DNA of 23,413 bases from the NCBI GenBank assembly GCA_944326655.1, contig CALVEX010000159.1:1-23413 (forward strand), given 5' to 3'. Within the stretch, counting starts at the first letter, position 1, and each line of letters starts with the position of its first letter. Both the position numbers and the translations under genes were made by a program. Of this stretch, positions 4,979-23,413 are shown one piece after another. Below the pieces are notes generated by a model. It did no database searches and was not told where the DNA came from. It worked only from the letters and a program-made list of their open reading frames with translations. Source of the stretch: Candidatus Gastranaerophilales bacterium. GTDB lineage: Bacteria; Cyanobacteriota; Vampirovibrionia; Gastranaerophilales; Gastranaerophilaceae.

Positions 4979-5222
4979 TCGATACTTCCTTCTACTTTTT
5001 TGTGTAAGACTTAGAATGTTTGCAATAAATTTATCGGCACTTTTTCTTTGTTCTTTAACTCCTCGACTCTCCTAATGTAATGCTATCAGCCGGAATGACT
5101 GTCTATTTGCTATTTTTACGTGTTTGTATAAATTTCGTTATACTTCTTTAGATTTGTAATTTTATTTATAATCCAAGCAATGTGTTGAACATTTATAATT
5201 CATAGTGATAGTAGTTTATTGA

Positions 5223-5233
5223 GGGGGGGGGGG
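5223..5233. repeat. Homopolymeric G11 tract (C11 on the sense strand of the giant gene), ~245 nt upstream of its ATG. Candidate slipped-strand phase-variation tract.
   Basis: Printed sequence ttgag + 11 g + atttc. The sense-strand context AAGAGGA..TTTTGTT..ATGG..(23 nt)..C11 resembles the uORF/poly-C module of the pilin cassettes (AAGAGGAG TTTTGTT ATGG ..28 nt.. C10). Confidence 0.6.
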
Positions 5234-5331
5234 ATTTCTACAATTATTTATTCCATCGAAAACAAAAATTTCCTCTTACAGGTGATTAAGTATCGTTTGT
5301 TCAGAAGTTTTCAATGCGAGGGCAAAAGCTA

Positions 5332-5760
5332 TTAATTTTCTTGGTTCTGTTCATTCTGTTGTTCAATAAGTTGTTTTTCATATTCCATGCGGGCTTTAAC
5401 TTTTATTTCATGCTTTTCTCCGTGGTGGGGTTCTTCACGCTTGTAACGTTGATCTACCCACCATTTTGCCATATGGTACACAACTCCTTTTTTTACAGGT
5501 TTGGGCTCTGAATATTCGGAAGTTTCCGGGTTAATTTTTTTTGGCCTGCGTTTTATCTTTGTTTTTAGAGGTTTGTCCAAATCATCTATTTTTAATTTCG
5601 GAGACGGGGCAATATCCATATAATCATTTAAATCAGCTTCATTCACCGCATAACTTTCAGGACTTACATAGCCCTCTTCTGCGTATGCACAAGGGATAAG
5701 AATAGAAAGAACCGACATCAGTATTAATATTTTTAAATCTTTTTTACATATAACTACCAT
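5332..5760 (-). CDS. Small secreted lysine-rich hypothetical protein (142 aa) with an N-terminal signal peptide (MVVICKKDLKILILMSVLSILIPCAYA/EEG).
   Basis: ORF with a positive n-region, hydrophobic h-region and AYA-E cleavage motif. K/E/P-rich mature part. No obvious SD, so the start is uncertain (an alternative Met lies 14 codons in). Confidence 0.45.
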   Translation of the reverse strand: MVVICKKDLKILILMSVLSILIPCAYAEEGYVSPESYAVNEADLNDYMDIAPSPKLKIDDLDKPLKTKIKRRPKKINPETSEYSEPKPVKKGVVYHMAKWWVDQRYKREEPHHGEKHEIKVKARMEYEKQLIEQQNEQNQEN

Positions 5761-9941: not shown

Positions 9942-11177
9942 TTAAAAAGGGTAATCATCTTTTATCTGCCATCCGTCACGCATAATTTTTGCAGCGCATG
10001 TGTATCCGCCGGATACTGCTTTAGCGTTGCAAGCCCAGGATGCTGTACTATTAATAGTGTTATCAGGCCAATCGTATCCGTAAGGTTTTAACATTTTGTC
10101 AGCCAGAATAAAGAAAAACAAATCCTTTCCTGCAACATTTGGTCCTTTATCAGAACCATTTATATCAATAAAAAATGCTGCATTATTTATTGATGTTGAA
10201 TAGAGTCCAATACAGACACCGTCTACGGTTTTAAAAGATGCAGTCCCCGGATTTATGGGGGAGGAGAGCCAGACTCCTGTCAACCATTCATACTGTGTAT
10301 TTTCATAAAACATTTTCCCGTTATAACACATATTTTCTGCATAGTCTCCGGGCGGATATGTTTTATCAATTTTAAATTCCGGTGCCAAATAATTATTAAC
10401 TATTTTTTCGGGGGAATTCCAATCCTGCCAGTTTTCCATTTCTCCATGTTTAATTTCTGCCATTATAATGGCCTGATTTGTCAGTGTGTAAGCTCGTTTT
10501 AATTTTGTAACAGTTTCATCCTTTTGATGTTTTGTAATTAATGTTGGTAAAGTCATCGCCGCAACCACGCCGATTATGCCGAGGGTGATTAGGACTTCTG
10601 CGAGTGTAAATGCGGCTCGACGTTGACCGTTCAGCAGGACTACGCGCGTAGCGCCATCTGCGATGGTAAAGGTAGCAAGTTTTTTCTTAAGTGAAGAAGT
10701 TAATAAGTCAATAGGTGAATAAGTTCGTTTCAGGGAATTGATATAGTCCCCTCTCCCCGGCGAATTGACCTTCGCGCGGGAGAGTACTCTTATACTCTTC
10801 CCTCTCCCCCTGCGGGAGAGGGTTAGGGTGAGGGGTGTTTGTTTGAAACCCATCCTAACCTTCCCTAATAAGGGAAGGAATTCTATGTCCCCTCCCTTGA
10901 GGGGAGGGGAATACAAGGGGAGGGTGATGCTCTTAAGTGAATAAGTTAATAGGTCAATAAGTGAATAAGTTCTTATCGGCAGCGTACCGCTGCAAAAGAT
11001 TACCGAGGAAATTTCACTATTATGCGATTGCGACGGTCGTTTCACACGCTGGCAATGACACGTATCTTGTGAGCTTTGCTCACAGATACCGGCATACCTT
11101 ATTACCCTCCTATCTTCCGATCTTCCATTAATGGCCTGCCCTCCTGCCTTCTTGAACTCTTGCCTTCTGTTTGTCAC
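9942..11177 (-). CDS. Prepilin-type (type IV pilin-like / pseudopilin-like) protein, paralog 1. The class-III signal motif AAFTLAEVLITLGIIGVVAAMTLP lies at codon ~189 of an open frame that starts at GTG 11177. The C-terminal ~220 aa globular part has the DINGSDKGPNVAGKDLFFF motif. The true 5' end is unresolved (see findings).
   Basis: Canonical FTLxE + hydrophobic helix. There is no in-frame ATG/GTG/TTG within 60 codons upstream of the motif. The frame stays open for ~188 codons back to a GTG whose UG overlaps the UGA stop of an RBS-equipped upstream ORF. Paralogous to 14013..15209. Confidence 0.6.
   Translation of the reverse strand: MTNRRQEFKKAGGQAINGRSEDRRVIRYAGICEQSSQDTCHCQRVKRPSQSHNSEISSVIFCSGTLPIRTYSLIDLLTYSLKSITLPLYSPPLKGGDIEFLPLLGKVRMGFKQTPLTLTLSRRGRGKSIRVLSRAKVNSPGRGDYINSLKRTYSPIDLLTSSLKKKLATFTIADGATRVVLLNGQRRAAFTLAEVLITLGIIGVVAAMTLPTLITKHQKDETVTKLKRAYTLTNQAIIMAEIKHGEMENWQDWNSPEKIVNNYLAPEFKIDKTYPPGDYAENMCYNGKMFYENTQYEWLTGVWLSSPINPGTASFKTVDGVCIGLYSTSINNAAFFIDINGSDKGPNVAGKDLFFFILADKMLKPYGYDWPDNTINSTASWACNAKAVSGGYTCAAKIMRDGWQIKDDYPF
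10688..11170 (-). repeat. Conserved hairpin-rich upstream cassette of pilin paralog 1 (shared with paralog 2 and partly with 23001..23330). It contains four polypyrimidine-loop-polypurine hairpins (10749-10785, 10800-10822, 10859-10878, 10889-10908) bracketed by a ~45-bp direct repeat (10690-10735 and 10925-10972, cttaagtgaataagttaataggtcaataagtgaataagttc). It also contains the palindrome TGTGAGCTTTGCTCACA (11068-11084).
   Basis: Direct sequence comparison with 14750-15205 (modules are nearly identical, with mosaic indels). Confidence 0.75.
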
Positions 11178-11221
11178 GCTTTCGGGGGGGGGGCGATTCT
11201 CAGCTTCTTATCTTTAACCAT
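11174..11221 (-). CDS. Upstream ORF of pilin paralog 1 encoding MVKDKKLRIAPPPKA (15 codons). It contains the C10 tract (encoding APPP). Its UGA stop overlaps the GUG start of the long pilin frame (gcGUGAca).
   Basis: AAGAGGAG-N7-ATG on the minus strand. The 10-G tract is confirmed independently by the plus-strand track ORF 11076..11297 (..CHAFGGGAILSF..). One extra C fuses this ATG in frame with the 9942..11177 frame. Confidence 0.5.
   Translation of the reverse strand: MVKDKKLRIAPPPKA
11184..11193. repeat. Homopolymeric G10 (C10 on the sense strand) inside the upstream ORF of pilin paralog 1. Candidate phase-variation tract.
   Basis: ttc + 10 g + cgatt, read directly from the sequence. Confidence 0.8.
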
Positions 11222-14012: not shown

Positions 14013-15209
14013 TTACGGATTAATACATTGCCAGTAAGTTTTTGATGTATCTGTTTCACATGTGTTTAAAATTGCCCATTTTGCACATGTGAAACCCTGG
14101 TAATGTTCTTTCTCAGATGTAAAACAGCCCCCAAAGCGTGTATATGGTACTACGTTGTTATTTTTGTCTATGTTGAATGAAAATAAATCGTGTCCCAGAC
14201 GGTTAGGTCCTTTGGCCGGGCCGTTGATATCAATGTGATACCCTCTCGCTCCCCAAGGACTCATAAATATAAGAATACCACTATTAGTTAAAATAGATTT
14301 TTGAGTAAGTGAGTCCGCGTCTATATGTGCATATGTCCCTTTAACAAAAGAGTCATAACTTTTTTCCCTGCGCCCTGTGCAGTCTAAGTAATATTTTGTG
14401 CACAGTTGAGCATTTGGTATATACTTTATAAGTTTGTCTAAATGATTTGAATATGCTGTTCTCATATCAGATTCAGAATTTAAATCTTCATACAGCATCG
14501 GATAATCATTCTGCATAAGCAGATGAGCATTTTGAATTAATGAATAAGCTTTTTTGAACTGTGTTTCCAAAACATGCCGTTTGTAATTTGTAATAACCAC
14601 AGGTAAAGTCATCGCCGCAACCACTCCGATAATTCCGAGGGTGATGAGGACCTCTGCCAATGTAAACGCGGCCTGACGTTGACCATTCGGCATGGCTACG
14701 CGCGTAGCGCACTCAGCCAAAGTGAATGCAGGTATCAACTGAACGCGTTCCATGTCCCCTCCCTTGAGGGGAGGGGAATTCAAGGGGAGGGTGATGCTCT
14801 TAAGTGAATAAGTTAATAAGTCAATAGGTGAATAAGTTCGTTTCGAGAAGGTGTTCTGCCTCTCTTTGGAAAACTCTTGTTCAAATATTTTAAAGTTTAA
14901 TAAATATTGTGGCAGAGGGCGAAAAAGAGGGTTGGGGTGAGGTTCTATTATGTTCTGCGATTGCGACGGTCGTTCCACTCCCTCGCAATGACATGTATTT
15001 TGTGAGCTTTGCTCACCGATTTCAGCATACCCTCCTACCTTCCTATCTTCCAATCTTCCTGAATCAGCCCTCTCTCTAACTATCTCCCGAGGAGAGAAAA
15101 CGCGTTTCAACTTCCTTATACAGGAAAGGAAGTTATTTTTACGCGGGCTCTGCCCGCCGATAATAGCCTGACCTCCTGCCTTCTTGCCCTCCTGACTTCT
15201 TTTTGTCAC
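14013..15209 (-). CDS. Prepilin-type (type IV pilin-like) protein, paralog 2. MPNGQRQAAFTLAEVLITLGIIGVVAAMTLP lies at codon 173, with an in-frame ATG at 14693 just before the motif. The C-terminal part has the DINGPAKGPNRLGHDLFSF motif. The frame is open back to a GTG near 15209 that is coupled to an upstream ORF, as in paralog 1.
   Basis: Same architecture as 9942..11177. The stop codon abuts the clpB stop (convergent, zero spacer). A partial duplicate FTLAE motif (IPAFTLAECATRVAMPNGQRQAAFTLAEV) is present. Confidence 0.65.
   Translation of the reverse strand: MTKRSQEGKKAGGQAIIGGQSPRKNNFLSCIRKLKRVFSPREIVRERADSGRLEDRKVGGYAEIGEQSSQNTCHCEGVERPSQSQNIIEPHPNPLFRPLPQYLLNFKIFEQEFSKERQNTFSKRTYSPIDLLTYSLKSITLPLNSPPLKGGDMERVQLIPAFTLAECATRVAMPNGQRQAAFTLAEVLITLGIIGVVAAMTLPVVITNYKRHVLETQFKKAYSLIQNAHLLMQNDYPMLYEDLNSESDMRTAYSNHLDKLIKYIPNAQLCTKYYLDCTGRREKSYDSFVKGTYAHIDADSLTQKSILTNSGILIFMSPWGARGYHIDINGPAKGPNRLGHDLFSFNIDKNNNVVPYTRFGGCFTSEKEHYQGFTCAKWAILNTCETDTSKTYWQCINP
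14750..15205 (-). repeat. Conserved hairpin-rich upstream cassette of pilin paralog 2. It contains hairpin 14766-14785 (cccctccc-ttga-ggggaggg), hairpins 15083-15095 and 15111-15132, the gaataagt module 14797-14850 and the palindrome TGTGAGCTTTGCTCAC (15001-15016).
   Basis: Module-by-module similarity to 10688-11170. An additional ~140-nt segment is absent from paralog 1. Confidence 0.75.
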
Positions 15210-15253
15210 GCTTTCGGGGGGGGGGCGATTCTCAGCTTCTTATCTTTTTTCAT
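15206..15253 (-). CDS. Upstream ORF of pilin paralog 2 (MKKDKKLRIAPPPKA if the tract is C10). It has the same RBS, poly-C tract and UGA/GUG overlap as paralog 1.
   Basis: AAAAGGAG-N7-ATG on the minus strand. The 3' coordinate depends on the tract length (9 as I read the printed line; 10 implied by the frame of the supplied ORF 14013..15209). Confidence 0.4.
   Translation of the reverse strand: MKKDKKLRIAPPPKA
15217..15225. repeat. Homopolymeric G tract (9-10 nt) inside the upstream ORF of pilin paralog 2.
   Basis: I read gctttc + 9 g + cgatt. The adjacent block reads cctgcccttcttg. The ORF-track translation MTKRSQEGKKAGG requires cctgccttcttg instead, so the G run is most probably 10 and one of my two run counts is off by one. 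Confidence 0.6.
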
Positions 15254-17221: not shown

Positions 17222-19066
17222 ATGTGCGGAATAGTAGGATATGTAGGAAATAAATCGGTTGTTGATATTTTGCTTGATGGATTGGAACAATTAGAATACA
17301 GAGGTTATGATTCATCCGGAATTGCTGTCATGTGTGATGATGAAATTAAAGTTTATAAAGCAATCGGCAAGCTTCAGAATTTAAGAGATGAATTGCGCGG
17401 GCATGAGCATGAATATAACAGCTCAACTATGGGTATAGGTCATATAAGATGGGCAACTCATGGGGCCCCTACTCTTTTAAACGCTCATCCTCAGACTTGT
17501 AATTGCGGAAATTTAGTTGTTGTCCATAACGGAATAATTGAAAATTACAAAGAATTAAGAGAAGAATTGTCTAAGTTGGGATGTGTGTTTAAATCACAAA
17601 CTGATACAGAAGCAGTCGCACATCTTGTAGCCCGTAAATACGCGGAATGCAAGGATTTAACCGAAGCTGTCAGACTCGCTTCGGAAGAAATAGAAGGAGC
17701 TTATGCTCTTTGTGTAATGCATAATGACTGTAAAAATAAACTTGTTATAACAAAAAGAAATGCTCCGCTTCTCGTAGGCATTGGAGAAGGCGAATATTTT
17801 GCGGCATCTGATGTTCCGGCTATTATTAAACATACTAAAAAGGCTGTTTATTTGACTGATAATCAAATAGCTACTTTGACTCCTGATTCTATGCAGATAA
17901 TAGATGAAAACGGATCTAAAATTGAACCGAAAATAGAGCTTTTACCATGGGAGCCTGTTGCATTGAGCAAAATGGGCTATAAGCACTTTATGCTTAAAGA
18001 AATCCATGAACAGCCCGATGTTATAAGAAATATTCTTGTCGGAAGACTTCATGCTCCAGATGAACACATTATTTTAAATGAGGTTAAATTAGATAAAGAA
18101 ACTCTGAAAAAATTAAACAGGATTCAGATTATTGCCTGCGGAACATCTTTACATGCTGCAATGGTTGGTAAATATATAATTGAAAGTTTTTGCGGTATTG
18201 CTGTTGATGTTGAAGCTTCAAGTGAATATATTTACAGAAAAACCGTTACGGATGAACATACTCTTGTTATAGGTGTTTCTCAGTCAGGCGAAACCGCTGA
18301 TACTTTGACCGCAATCAAACAGGCAAAGGCTAAAGGGTCGCATATTCTGATTATTACAAACAGACCGGACAGTTCAATGGCTCGAGAGGCGGACAGTTTA
18401 ATTCCGGTGAATGCGGGTATTGAAGTTTCGGTTGCTGCAACTAAGTCTTATATCGCTCAATTGATGGCATTTTATCTTCTTGCATTATATATGTCAGAAA
18501 TTAAAGACAGTATTGCAGCCTCAACACTAACTTCTTTAAAAGCAGAATTGATGGTTCTTCCTCAAAAGATAGAACAAATTCTTGCTCATAAAGAGGATAT
18601 TCAAAAAGTTGCGAAAACTTATGCAAATACAAAAGACTTCATCTATATTGCACGAGGGATAAATTATCCTACAGCATTAGAGGGGGCATTAAAGCTTAAA
18701 GAAATCAGCTATATTAGTGCTACAGGATATCCTGCCGGCGAGTTGAAGCATGGTCCTATTGCAATGCTTGATGAGACAATGCCTGTTCTGTCAATTTTAA
18801 TGAACGGTTCTGTTTATGACAAACTTCTTTCAAACAGCGAAGAAGCAAAAGCAAGAAACGCAAGGATGATTGCACTTACAAATTCAAAGGACGGAAAACT
18901 GGATGATTTATTTGAAAATATAATAAGAGTTCCGGATGTACAGGAATTGTTCTCGCCAATTATAGCAATTATTCCTTTACAGCTTATGGCTTATTATATT
19001 GCGGAATTTTTGGGTAAAGACGTAGATCAGCCGAGAAATCTTGCAAAATCTGTTACAGTAGAGTAG
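17222..19066 (+). CDS. glmS: Glutamine--fructose-6-phosphate aminotransferase (isomerising).
   Basis: MCGIVGYVG N-terminal nucleophile, two SIS domains, conserved C-terminal ...AYYIAEFLGKDVDQPRNLAKSVTVE. RBS GAGAGGAAAT upstream. Confidence 0.97.
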   Translation: MCGIVGYVGNKSVVDILLDGLEQLEYRGYDSSGIAVMCDDEIKVYKAIGKLQNLRDELRGHEHEYNSSTMGIGHIRWATHGAPTLLNAHPQTCNCGNLVVVHNGIIENYKELREELSKLGCVFKSQTDTEAVAHLVARKYAECKDLTEAVRLASEEIEGAYALCVMHNDCKNKLVITKRNAPLLVGIGEGEYFAASDVPAIIKHTKKAVYLTDNQIATLTPDSMQIIDENGSKIEPKIELLPWEPVALSKMGYKHFMLKEIHEQPDVIRNILVGRLHAPDEHIILNEVKLDKETLKKLNRIQIIACGTSLHAAMVGKYIIESFCGIAVDVEASSEYIYRKTVTDEHTLVIGVSQSGETADTLTAIKQAKAKGSHILIITNRPDSSMAREADSLIPVNAGIEVSVAATKSYIAQLMAFYLLALYMSEIKDSIAASTLTSLKAELMVLPQKIEQILAHKEDIQKVAKTYANTKDFIYIARGINYPTALEGALKLKEISYISATGYPAGELKHGPIAMLDETMPVLSILMNGSVYDKLLSNSEEAKARNARMIALTNSKDGKLDDLFENIIRVPDVQELFSPIIAIIPLQLMAYYIAEFLGKDVDQPRNLAKSVTVE

Positions 19067-19158
19067 AATTGTATTTGTAAAAAACGTATGTAACTCCCCT
19101 AGTATAGTGAAACGGAACATACTTCAAAATTTCACCATGATAATTGAATATTTAAAAA

Positions 19159-19231
19159 GCCGATGTAGCTCAGTTGGTAGAGCAACTCATTCGTAATGAG
19201 TAGGTCAAGGGTTCGAGTCCCTTTATCGGCT
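19159..19231 (+). tRNA. tRNA-Thr (anticodon CGT), 73 nt, CCA not encoded.
   Basis: Manual cloverleaf. Acceptor gccgatg/tatcggc (one G-U pair). D arm tagctcagttggtagagc. Anticodon stem actca/tgagt with loop ttCGTaa. T arm aaggg-ttcgagt-ccctt. Discriminator t. Confidence 0.85.
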
Positions 19232-19458
19232 TGGTTATAAAATTATGATAAAATCCGCTGTCGTGAAAATAAAAAAAGTAAATAATTTTGATAATTCCTA
19301 TATCGAAGATGAATTGGCTAAATTATATAGGGATATAGTTCGTTGGGCTGTTGTTGATGTAGATGAAGCGGACATTTCCATAAGCGTTTCTTACCTAACG
19401 TAATATATATTAATACAATATTTGCTTTTGAAAGTTTTTGGTTGTACACTGTTTCTTA

Positions 19459-19551
19459 ATGGATTGGCCGGGTCGGAATTAAAAACCTTACCGGCCGGAT
19501 TGACGGTGATAGGTTCGCCGGATCCTAAATACAAATTAAGGAGAATTTAAA
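19459..19551 (+). promoter_or_regulatory. GC-rich structured 5' leader of metK. Hairpin GGCCGG-loop-CCGGCC (19465-19495) whose loop (aaCCTTAcc) is complementary to the SD region (atTAAGGag). Candidate pseudoknot-type SAM-responsive element of unassigned class.
   Basis: Stem and loop/SD complementarity read directly. The leader does not match the SAM-I core (no GAGGGA...GGCAACC...). Confidence 0.3.
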
Positions 19552-20826
19552 ATGACACCAAGAAACTTTTTATTCACTTCCGAATCAGTTACGGAAGGAC
19601 ACCCCGACAAAGTCTGCGATCAGATTTCAGACGCAATTTTGGATGAGTTTTTGACAAAATACCCTCAGGCGCGTGTAGCAGCTGAAACTACTGTTACCAC
19701 TGGTATGGCGCTTGTCTGCGGGGAAATTACTGCTGATTGTTATGTTGATATTCCTTCAGTTGTAAGAAATACGATTAAAAATATCGGCTACAACGGAACA
19801 CAAGGCGGCGGTTTTGATTACAAAACCTGTGCCGTTTTGACAAGTATTGATGAACAGTCTTGCGACATTGCGGGCGGTGTAAACAAAGCTTTTGAAACAA
19901 GAAATAACAACGCTGATACTTCAACTTCTGAAACTGAAAATATCGGCGCAGGCGATCAGGGAATTATGTTTGGTTACGCCTGTAACGAAACACCTGAATT
20001 AATGCCTTTGCCTATCAGTTTGGCTCATAAATTATCATATAGATTAGCTCAGGTAAGAAAACAGGGAATTTTAAACTACCTCAGACCGGATGGCAAATCT
20101 CAGGTTACTGTTGAATATGTTGACGGAAAACCTTCTAGAATTCATACAATTCTTATTTCAACACAACATGATCCTGAAATTAACGGTGAATGTGATAACA
20201 GCAAAGTTCAGGAAATTATTAAAAGAGATATTACCGCATACGTAATTGATGAGGTTTTTGCGCACGAAACTATTAAAATTGATAGTGAAACAAAAATTCT
20301 TGTAAACCCGTCAGGAAGATTCGTTGTAGGCGGGCCTCAAGGGGATGCCGGATTGACCGGACGTAAAATTATTGTTGATACTTACGGTGGTTATTCTCGC
20401 CACGGCGGCGGTGCTTTTTCGGGAAAAGATCCTACAAAAGTTGACAGATCTGCTGCTTATGCCGCAAGATGGGTTGCTAAAAATGTTGTAGCTTCAGGTT
20501 TAGCAGAAAAATGCGAAATCGAACTTGCTTATGCAATCGGTGTTGCAGAACCTGTTTCAATCTTGGTTGATACTTTTGGCACAGGTAAAATTTCCGATGA
20601 TGAAATATCTGCTTTAGTATCTAAAAACTTTGATTTAAGACCTGCATCAATTATTAATCAGTTTGACCTTCGCGGGCTGCCTGCTAAAAACGGCGGTAAA
20701 TTCTATCAATTACTTGCCGCATACGGTCATATGGGAAGAACTGATATTGATGTTCCGTGGGAAAGAACAGATAAGGCCGACGCTTTGAAATCTCAGGCTT
20801 GCGGCTGCTGTTCCTGCTCAAAATAA
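19552..20826 (+). CDS. metK: S-adenosylmethionine synthetase with an unusual Cys-rich C-terminal tail (...[11 protein letters not shown]).
   Basis: Conserved MetK blocks ([51 protein letters not shown]). RBS AAGGAGAATTTAAA-ATG. Confidence 0.97.
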
Positions 20827-20889: not shown

Positions 20890-21075
20890 GACCGTCACCC
20901 TAAATTTGTTTTAGGGTATGAATTTTTTTTGATTTCTATCGCAGTTTACAAAAGAACCGTAATACTCTCATTCCGAATGTCGGATTGACCTTCGTGTTTC
21001 GGAATCTCTATATTGTTAGACCCTGAAACAAGTTCAGGGTGACATTCAAGATGTTGTTAGTGTAAACTGCGATAT
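20890..21075 (+). repeat. Structured intergenic repeat element. Hairpins accctaaa-tttgtt-tttagggt (20896-20917) and accctgaa-acaa-ttcagggt (21020-21040). A 10-bp inverted repeat gcagtttaca/tgtaaactgc (20941-50 and 21061-70) encloses a nested palindrome attccgaa...ttcggaat and a sigma70-like promoter TTGACC-N18-TATATT (20985-21014) oriented toward the gamma-CA gene.
   Basis: Read directly. A 45-nt core (gtaatacNNtcattcNNNNNtcggattgNNcttNgtgtttcNgaa) recurs at 23003-23050. Shorter pieces recur upstream of the giant gene (5083-5110, minus strand), at 10761-10775 and at 19494-19506. Confidence 0.55.
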
Positions 21076-23000: not shown

Positions 23001-23330
23001 ATGTGTAATACAGTCATTCTGTACCTCGGATTGTGCTTTGTGTTTCAGAAGTTAGTTGCAAGAAGTTCGGAAGGCAGGAAGGCAAGAGGTCAAGCCGTTA
23101 TCGGCGGGCAAGGCCCTCGTAATGACAATTACAAGTTTAACTTTTGCAGCGGTACGCTGCCTATACGAACTTCTCGTCCTAACGTCTTTACGTCTTATCG
23201 TCTGAAACAATACGAACCTCACCCCAGCCTCTCCTTGTAAAGGAGAGGGGACGATATCAGCTCGCCGAAACGAACTTATTCACCTAAACTCGTTTCACTC
23301 TTCACTCATCACAGTTCACTTAATATTATT
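23001..23330 (+). repeat. Third, degraded copy of the pilin upstream cassette (plus-strand orientation). It lacks the promoter, upstream ORF and poly-C module, has a frame-breaking stop, and retains one hairpin (cctctcctt-gtaa-aaggagagg, 23228-23249) and a diverged gaataagt module. A new gene starts at ~23405 (AGAGGG..ATGAAAA).
   Basis: Same-frame peptide similarity (VARSSEGRKARGQAVIGGQ...FCSGTLPIRT against paralogs 1 and 2). Nucleotide similarity to 11120-11170 and 15120-15200, including synonymous third-position differences. Confidence 0.6.
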
Positions 23331-23413
23331 AGTAACCGTAATTAATCCTTTATGAGTGAAAAATTTTTTTTATATGGTACAATTTTTTCAAAAAGAGGGT
23401 TATGTGATGAAAA

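Follow-up and report, generated by a model that had tools for sequence, protein, structure and literature searches.

A poly-C tract upstream of a giant Gastranaerophilales gene as a possible orphan remnant of a leader-peptide switch

In a contig of Candidatus Gastranaerophilales bacterium (CALVEX010000159.1; 23,413 nt, all of which was analysed and is hereafter called the window), a giant gene is preceded, on its sense strand, by a run of 11 cytosines. We conclude that this tract is a real feature and that it probably does not control the giant gene, because the gene has its own flagellar-type promoter, predicted further downstream. Our preferred explanation, held tentatively, is that the tract is an orphan, left over from a leader-peptide homopolymer switch and now without a gating role. 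Feature coordinates are collected in Table 1.

Table 1. Positions of the features discussed, in window coordinates unless another contig is named.
Feature	Position	Strand	Remarks
Giant ORF, 1621 aa	113..4978	-	SD AGGA at 4990-4987
Predicted sigma-28 (FliA)-type promoter, TAAAGAAC-N11-GCCGATAA	5031..5057	-	predicted start near 5023
AGTCATTCCGG, truncated 5' end of dispersed repeat (GTAATAC[AT]GTCATTC[CT]G...)	5090..5100	-	no matching 3' arm
Candidate sigma-70-like hexamers TTGTAG (5243-5238) and TAAACT (5218-5213)	5213..5243	-	spacer 19/18/17 nt at C11/C10/C9
C11 homopolymer (G11 on + strand), non-coding	5223..5233	-	C on sense strand of giant gene
Two-codon mini-ORF ATG GAA TAA	5248..5256	-	A of ATG 23 nt before tract; 20 nt between ATG and tract
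ATGG	5256-5253	-
TTTTGTT	5267-5261	-
SD-like AAGAGGA	5271..5277	-	14 nt 5' of mini-ORF ATG
142-aa gene	5332..5760	-	conserved Gastranaerophilales family
Pilin run 1	11184-11193	-	10 nt
Pilin run 2	15216-15225	-	10 nt
Contigs of ERZ16268082 around tract	L001 792-923 (vs window 5222-5091); L003 1-113

The tract lies 98 nt past the stop of the 142-aa gene and 245 nt 5' of the giant-gene ATG, exactly where an earlier note on this DNA had placed it. Only three G/C runs of at least 8 nt occur in the window, namely this one and the two 10-nt runs at 11184 and 15216; all three are C on the minus strand, and the next-longest run is 5 nt. For runs of at least 10 nt, about 0.0016-0.006 are expected from composition, against the three observed. 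Short contigs from the metagenome assemblies of two other samples (L001 and L002) carry C11 with the same flanks as the window, so that all three assemblies compared, as consensus sequences only, agree on C11; a scan of JGI metagenomes for the tract flank gave no match. Since the run lengths are far beyond expectation and C11 recurs in three independent assemblies, we conclude that the tract is real and not a chance feature. The alternative, that it arose by chance or through faulty assembly or sequencing (as with poly-G artefacts in reads), draws on sample ERZ16268082, in which the assembly breaks at the tract: L001 differs from the window at 1 position in the 780 nt before the run and at 20 positions, 12 of them A-to-T changes, in the 132 nt that follow, and L003, from the same sample, starts 20 nt past the tract and agrees with the window. 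We read the L001 tail after the homopolymer as an error-rich read tail rather than a second allele, although it may conceivably be the latter. An artefact is scarcely credible given that assemblies from different samples agree on both flanks as well as on the run, that the run is shorter than any assembly k-mer, that the expected number of such runs is about 0.001 and that pilin genes from many samples have runs of this class at defined positions.

Read on the minus strand from 5277 down, the DNA around the tract consists of AAGAGGA, aat, TTTTGTT, ttcg, ATG GAA TAA, ataa, TTGTAG, aaat, the 11 cytosines, tcaa and TAAACT. The earlier note had likened the order AAGAGGA, TTTTGTT, ATGG, about 25 nt and poly-C to that of the pilin switches; the order is indeed present, with a shorter gap before the run and a wide SD-ATG distance (Table 1), and the ATG is not followed directly by TAA as had been stated, since a GAA codon stands between them. 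In the frame of this ATG the tract would read I-P-P-P, compared with M.K.KKLRIAPPP in the pilin leaders. No ORF beginning with ATG, GTG or TTG crosses the tract on the sense strand at any length from C9 to C13. On the plus strand, a TTG-initiated ORF (5122-5237) starts 4 nt before the G run and encodes 38 aa at G11 and 21-23 aa at other lengths; it is antisense to the end of the 142-aa gene and has no SD, and we judged it spurious. A 372-nt stretch spanning the intergenic region folds no better than shuffled sequences (z = +0.9), an Rfam search of the window returned tRNA only, with nothing at the intergenic stretch, and a masked blast of the 353-nt intergenic region against 1.08 Mb of related loci found no match near the tract.

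The two 10-nt runs of the window each lie 28 nt past the ATG of a gene with a prepilin N-terminal methylation motif; at C10 a stop closes the ATG frame after 15 codons, and at C11 the frame enters the pilin ORF. Every other resolved G/C run of at least 10 nt, in the window and in about 1.08 Mb of related DNA, is positioned 26-33 nt past the ATG of a type IV pilin-like ORF that is open at one run length. The sense strand of these switches has either C or G in the run, and the SD precedes the ATG by 6-8 nt. The resolved loci comprise the two in the window and those in L006-L009, L014, L019, L044, L048, L060 and L080. Assembled run length is 10 in 13 of the 14, with a frame that opens at 11 (at 9 in one case); in L008 the run is C11 and the frame is open. 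An exact-pattern scan of one genome per species detected the pilin-type module only in MAGs labelled Candidatus Gastranaerophilales. Within a species, run length is identical across 3-4 independent samples. Such uniform lengths, always one base short, are odd for free phase variation and hence raise transcriptional slippage or sequencing bias as alternatives.

Both window pilin genes have about 170-190 codons between the run and the prepilin FTLAE motif (10640-11177 and 14690-15209, minus strand), and this stretch is dense in dispersed repeat elements, yet open in the C11 frame. In relatives such as L007 and L008, by comparison, only 15-30 codons separate the two. A third stretch resembling the pilin leader repeats lies on the plus strand at 23060-23286, in the opposite orientation to 10712-11019 and 15139-15201; a homopolymer run is missing from it, and an SD and an ATG at 23407 come just after it, at the window edge.

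We compared the C11 site with these switches. A C/G run of at least 10 nt on the sense strand is common to both. The spacings fall outside the range of the switches, with 14 nt from SD to ATG (6-8 in the switches) and 23 nt from the A of the ATG to the run (26-33 in the switches). A TAA at codon 3 closes the frame, no ORF crosses the run into a prepilin FTLAE motif, and neither pilin-like sequence nor a pilin remnant was found downstream of the tract. A profile HMM of seven switch modules recovered both window pilin modules (E 6e-22 to 7e-8), and did so again in leave-out form (E 3e-14 and 7e-8); the same seven-module profile did not recognise the C11 site, where its only match was E = 90 over 22 nt. 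Pairwise comparisons gave p values of 0.02-0.5 overall: Smith-Waterman alignment with shuffles yielded p of about 0.02-0.05 against pilin module 1, and local alignment to module 2 was not significant. Searches of the site against the switch modules with blastn and nhmmer were marginal or negative. A layout of SD, ATG and a further 18-32 nt occurs at 1.1-2.1% of window positions. The likeness of the site to a pilin module thus appears to exceed chance only weakly. Because its frame is closed, its spacings are out of range and it has no HMM match, the C11 site does not belong to the switches by their defining features, and what remains is a loose architectural resemblance.

A homopolymer in the coding region of a signal or leader peptide is a known form of translational phase switch, exemplified by the poly-G run of Neisseria pilC and the poly-G contingency genes of Campylobacter jejuni. 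These elements have in common with the sites described here a G/C run of 10-11 nt soon after a start codon that is preceded by an SD, and the Gastranaerophilales pilin genes follow exactly that design. The C11 site differs in that its leader frame stops at codon 3, the run is not followed by an ORF and at no run length is a gene fused to it. It is, at most, a dead copy of a translational phase switch.

How might such a remnant have come about? A working switch consists of a promoter, an SD, an ATG, about 8 codons, a C/G run of 10-11 and the pilin, such that one run length fuses the short leader ORF to the pilin frame and other lengths yield a peptide of 15-25 aa. At the C11 site only the front end of this arrangement (SD-like motif, ATG and run) would be left; the leader frame would have been shut by the TAA at codon 3, and the pilin body would be gone, with no ORF after the run in any frame. 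The giant gene would have arrived with its own sigma-28-type promoter and would be transcribed from there, 165 nt past the run, so translation of the gene would not depend on the length of the run, and its main transcription probably would not either. A derivation of the run from a pilin-type switch is plausible, and we infer that the run now has no regulatory effect. Consistent with this, the other resolved runs are all in pilin leaders, and an SD-like motif and an ATG precede the run in a layout expected by chance at only about 1% of positions. Against it, homology to the real switches is not demonstrable, given the HMM miss and the marginal pairwise scores; the suggestion in the earlier note of a decayed upstream-ORF module therefore survives as a plausible idea and not as one that sequence similarity can establish. 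The perfection of the run also points to an origin in the very recent past or to a function at present, since an uninterrupted 11-nt run that was not under selection should shrink or be broken quickly.

The N-terminal ~600 aa of the giant protein are conserved and contain a Gly/Ala-rich hydrophobic core. The protein also has tandem repeats, each about 29-31 aa long (ARELCNNPDFPKEHIKGIL...), and its C-terminal module ends in a GNAT fold. Searches of Pfam, NCBIfam and PDB sequences returned no match to it; the model of the N-terminal domain was poor (pLDDT 54) and was left out of the fold search. We identified 18 homologues that share the first ~600 residues and differ in their C-terminal parts, which are swapped among them, with precomputed HD or ABC1 Pfam hits there in two. 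One protein from another sample (P0001) is 98% identical to the giant protein and 29 aa shorter, which fits one repeat fewer.

A box upstream of the giant gene, 52 nt before its ATG and 165 nt downstream of the tract, is the sole perfect match in the window to TAAA-N15-GCCGATAA. The consensus for late flagellar promoters recognised by sigma-28/FliA (SigD) is TAAAGTTT-N11-GCCGATAA (PMC2859248), with which the box agrees at 5/8 and 8/8 positions and has the exact 11-nt spacer. We compared the upstream regions of eight loci encoding giant homologues (L004, L005, L021, L017/L022, L019, L023 and L024), and all eight have a sigma-28-type block close to the gene, 60-130 nt from the ATG. In its full form in the lineage, this block consists of an upstream element, N13, TAAAGTTT, N11 and GCCGATA[AT]. 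A metagenome scan with the conserved 19-mer TGTAAATTTTTGTAACAAT retrieved more than 120 contigs; in 55 of them TAAA[N][AT] lies 16-19 nt after TTGTAA, followed by a CCG[AT]TA box in 39 of the 55. Downstream of the block in other contigs are genes for flagellin (Flagellin_N/C) and FliD. Since the -35 and -10 elements match the consensus and flagellin and FliD genes lie downstream, we assign the block to the sigma-28/FliA type, and we infer that the box is the active promoter of the giant gene, as a predicted promoter. Flagellar gene sets have been reported for some Gastranaerophilales (PMC4040986), and the window itself contains no fliA gene. The window copy of the promoter differs from the usual block of the lineage in lacking the upstream 19-mer, and a profile built from the upstream regions of the family had no significant hits in the window, the GCCGATAA box region alone being picked up at E = 2. 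The likeness to sigma-28 late flagellar promoters is hence a property of the proximal promoter of the giant gene, not of the tract.

The 19-mer itself contains two TGTAA half-sites 10 nt apart. It is found before genes for flagellin, FliD, a recurrent protein family (MG[LM][AS]ASQARLL...) and several very large proteins, and loci with both the 19-mer and the sigma-28-type promoter are L004, L005, L017, L019, L021-L024 and L025-L144. Judged from these sequences, the combination looks like the late flagellar regulon signal of the lineage.

The hexamers on either side of the tract point to a different possibility, namely a sigma-70-type promoter (TTGTAG, then AAAT + Cn + TCAA, then TAAACT) in which C11 serves as the variable spacer. 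Such a promoter would provide a second transcript of the giant gene, stochastic and independent of sigma-28, with a leader of about 230 nt; it would be on at C9, with a 17-nt spacer, would have an 18-nt spacer at C10 and would be weak or off at C11 (19 nt), the state found here. Among promoter-spacer repeats of this type is the poly-C run of the Bordetella fim promoters. The mechanism is established for the poly-G run between the -35 and -10 elements of Neisseria meningitidis porA and for the TA repeats of Haemophilus influenzae hifA/hifB (PMC3899988). Here, as there, a hypermutable run lies between TTG-type and TAnnnT hexamers, with a spacer that reaches 17 nt within two steps. The hexamers do flank the run at a spacing of 17-19 nt from C9 to C11, no other sigma-70-like site in the 353-nt region outscores the tract-spanning pair at C8-C10, which also counts against a remnant, and a perfect 11-nt run in otherwise unconstrained DNA suggests upkeep by selection.

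The scores of the tract-spanning pair speak less well for this model. As a sigma-70 promoter the pair reaches 6.8, 5.8 and 3.8 bits at C9, C10 and C11, respectively. For comparison, the best site in any 350-nt chunk of the window has a median score of 7.0, and the pilin promoters on this contig are far stronger, at 10.7-10.9 bits. The resemblance to porA and hifA/hifB breaks down at the same point, with hexamers at background score and a downstream gene that has an independent and much better promoter of another sigma class, predicted as a perfect sigma-28-type promoter. The run is absent from the corresponding region of the eight homologue loci, and its length does not differ among the three assemblies, as consensus sequences. 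Nor do the tract-flanking hexamers form a sigma-28 promoter, because they have no GCCGATAA-like -10 (the position reads ATTATAAA). Homologue promoters lend no support to the spacer model, as their TAAAG[AT] is a sigma-28 -35 and not a -10. We had taken TTGTAA-N17/18-TAAAG[AT] upstream of the giant homologues for a -35/-10 pair and rejected this assignment, since TAAAG[AT]TT is the sigma-28 -35 and the -10 is GCCGATA[AT]; a PWM derived from that pair, which seemed to back TTGTAG-N-TAAACT across the tract, was withdrawn for the reason that the -10 position at the tract reads ATTATAAA.

We therefore regard a spacer role for the tract, whose positive support lies in the placement of the hexamers, as unlikely. 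The broader proposal, that C11 is a live contingency locus adding stochastic, run-length-dependent transcription to a giant GNAT-domain protein of the sigma-28 regulon, is likewise doubtful. The suggestion in the earlier note that the tract now sits in a promoter is weakened: the hexamers and their spacing stand, and the background score and the separate sigma-28-type promoter tell against it. That note had also named a transcript start downstream of an invariant tract as evidence against a promoter role; this holds as far as a start predicted downstream of the tract and C11 in three consensus sequences can take it.

Two further ways in which the run could act on the giant gene are speculative. 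The run could work at a distance on the sigma-28 promoter, through helical phasing or distance to an upstream protein site, or through DNA structure, in a graded, rheostat-like manner. In the homologues, the strongly conserved TGTAAATTTTTGTAACAAT is directly upstream of the sigma-28 -35; the window has no TGTAAATTTTTGTAACAAT at the expected position and a partial look-alike, AATAATTGTAGAAAT, immediately upstream of the run. However, the look-alike agrees at only 10/14 positions and has a single TGTA half, the family profile has no match there, and the 165 nt between the run and the -35 greatly exceed the distances over which single-base changes are known to matter, so that we find this effect very unlikely. 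Alternatively, the run could act in the RNA or during elongation on read-through from the 142-aa gene, by polymerase pausing or by loading of a termination factor at the C-rich stretch, and would in this way govern the amount of transcription that enters the giant gene. No intrinsic terminator is predicted after the 142-aa gene on the minus strand, and the run resembles those of the pilin switches in being C on the transcribed sense strand; this model nonetheless has neither a supporting structure nor conservation, and the giant gene has its own predicted promoter. We give it marginally less credence still. We accordingly retain the orphan remnant as the preferred, and tentative, account of the tract.

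The AGTCATTCCGG motif downstream of the tract had been put forward in the earlier note as shared with repeats at 20958 and 23008, and as linking the giant gene to the system of variable genes. There is a single exact copy of AGTCATTCCGG in the window, and all that it has in common with the repeats near those positions is the core (ACA)GTCATTC[CT]G, of which 11/12 bases are shared with the copy at 23011 and 8 bases with that at 20964. The region matches the opening ~25 nt of a dispersed element (AAATATG.GTAATAC[AT]GTCATTC[CT]G...), the rest of which is absent, and the same repeat family is found in ordinary intergenic DNA of relatives, including after their 144-aa gene. Because AGTCATTCCGG is a fragment of a common intergenic repeat, a tie between the giant gene and the variable genes is not supported by these sequences.

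The gene upstream of the tract belongs to a family of 188 homologues, apparently all from the lineage, with no known domain. No terminator-like site was predicted after it on the minus strand. The segment 5761-5800 (minus strand) contains TTGTTT-N16-TAAAAT before this gene; since the element ends 6 nt before the ATG, it suggests that the mRNA may be leaderless or nearly so.

Comparison with related genomes places the tract in a recent context. Upstream of the gene in the eight giant-homologue loci we found no G/C run of at least 7 nt, and relatives whose 144-aa gene is 73-74% identical (L009-L016) have a tRNA gene and dispersed repeats at this place, and no giant gene. As the homologues have no run and the relatives have a tRNA gene and repeats there, the arrangement of tract and giant gene is recent and specific to this species. 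In L019 (1762-3001), a giant homologue is found between glmS and metK, with a divergently oriented pilin switch about 370 nt away; in the window glmS and metK lie next to each other (17222-20826), and the giant gene is located after the 142-aa gene. The L019 arrangement indicates that giant genes and pilin genes move and can become neighbours. Across L019, the window and the closer relatives, the location of the giant gene is not constant.

Taken alone, the tract is of minor importance, being a homopolymer of a familiar hypermutable type for which no target can be demonstrated. If it is a remnant, it documents the decay of such switches, which can be left beside unrelated genes. The giant gene family sits behind a conserved flagellar-type promoter, and the corresponding regulon would include giant proteins with variable C-termini. 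A literature search found no paper that combines "Gastranaerophilales" with "phase variation", and none on homopolymeric-tract switching in Melainabacteria. Gastranaerophilales, uncultured gut relatives of Cyanobacteria, have many pilin genes gated by G/C runs of 10-11 nt, and the homopolymer switch, a known kind of element, is found in a lineage from which it had not been described in the literature searched. Should the tract prove to be a live locus, a gut Melainabacterium would combine translational homopolymer switches, in its pilins, with a transcriptional one, at the giant gene. No repertoire of contingency loci would have been described earlier from this uncultured sister lineage of Cyanobacteria. 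If the tract varies and affects expression, that repertoire would extend from translational to transcriptional switching.
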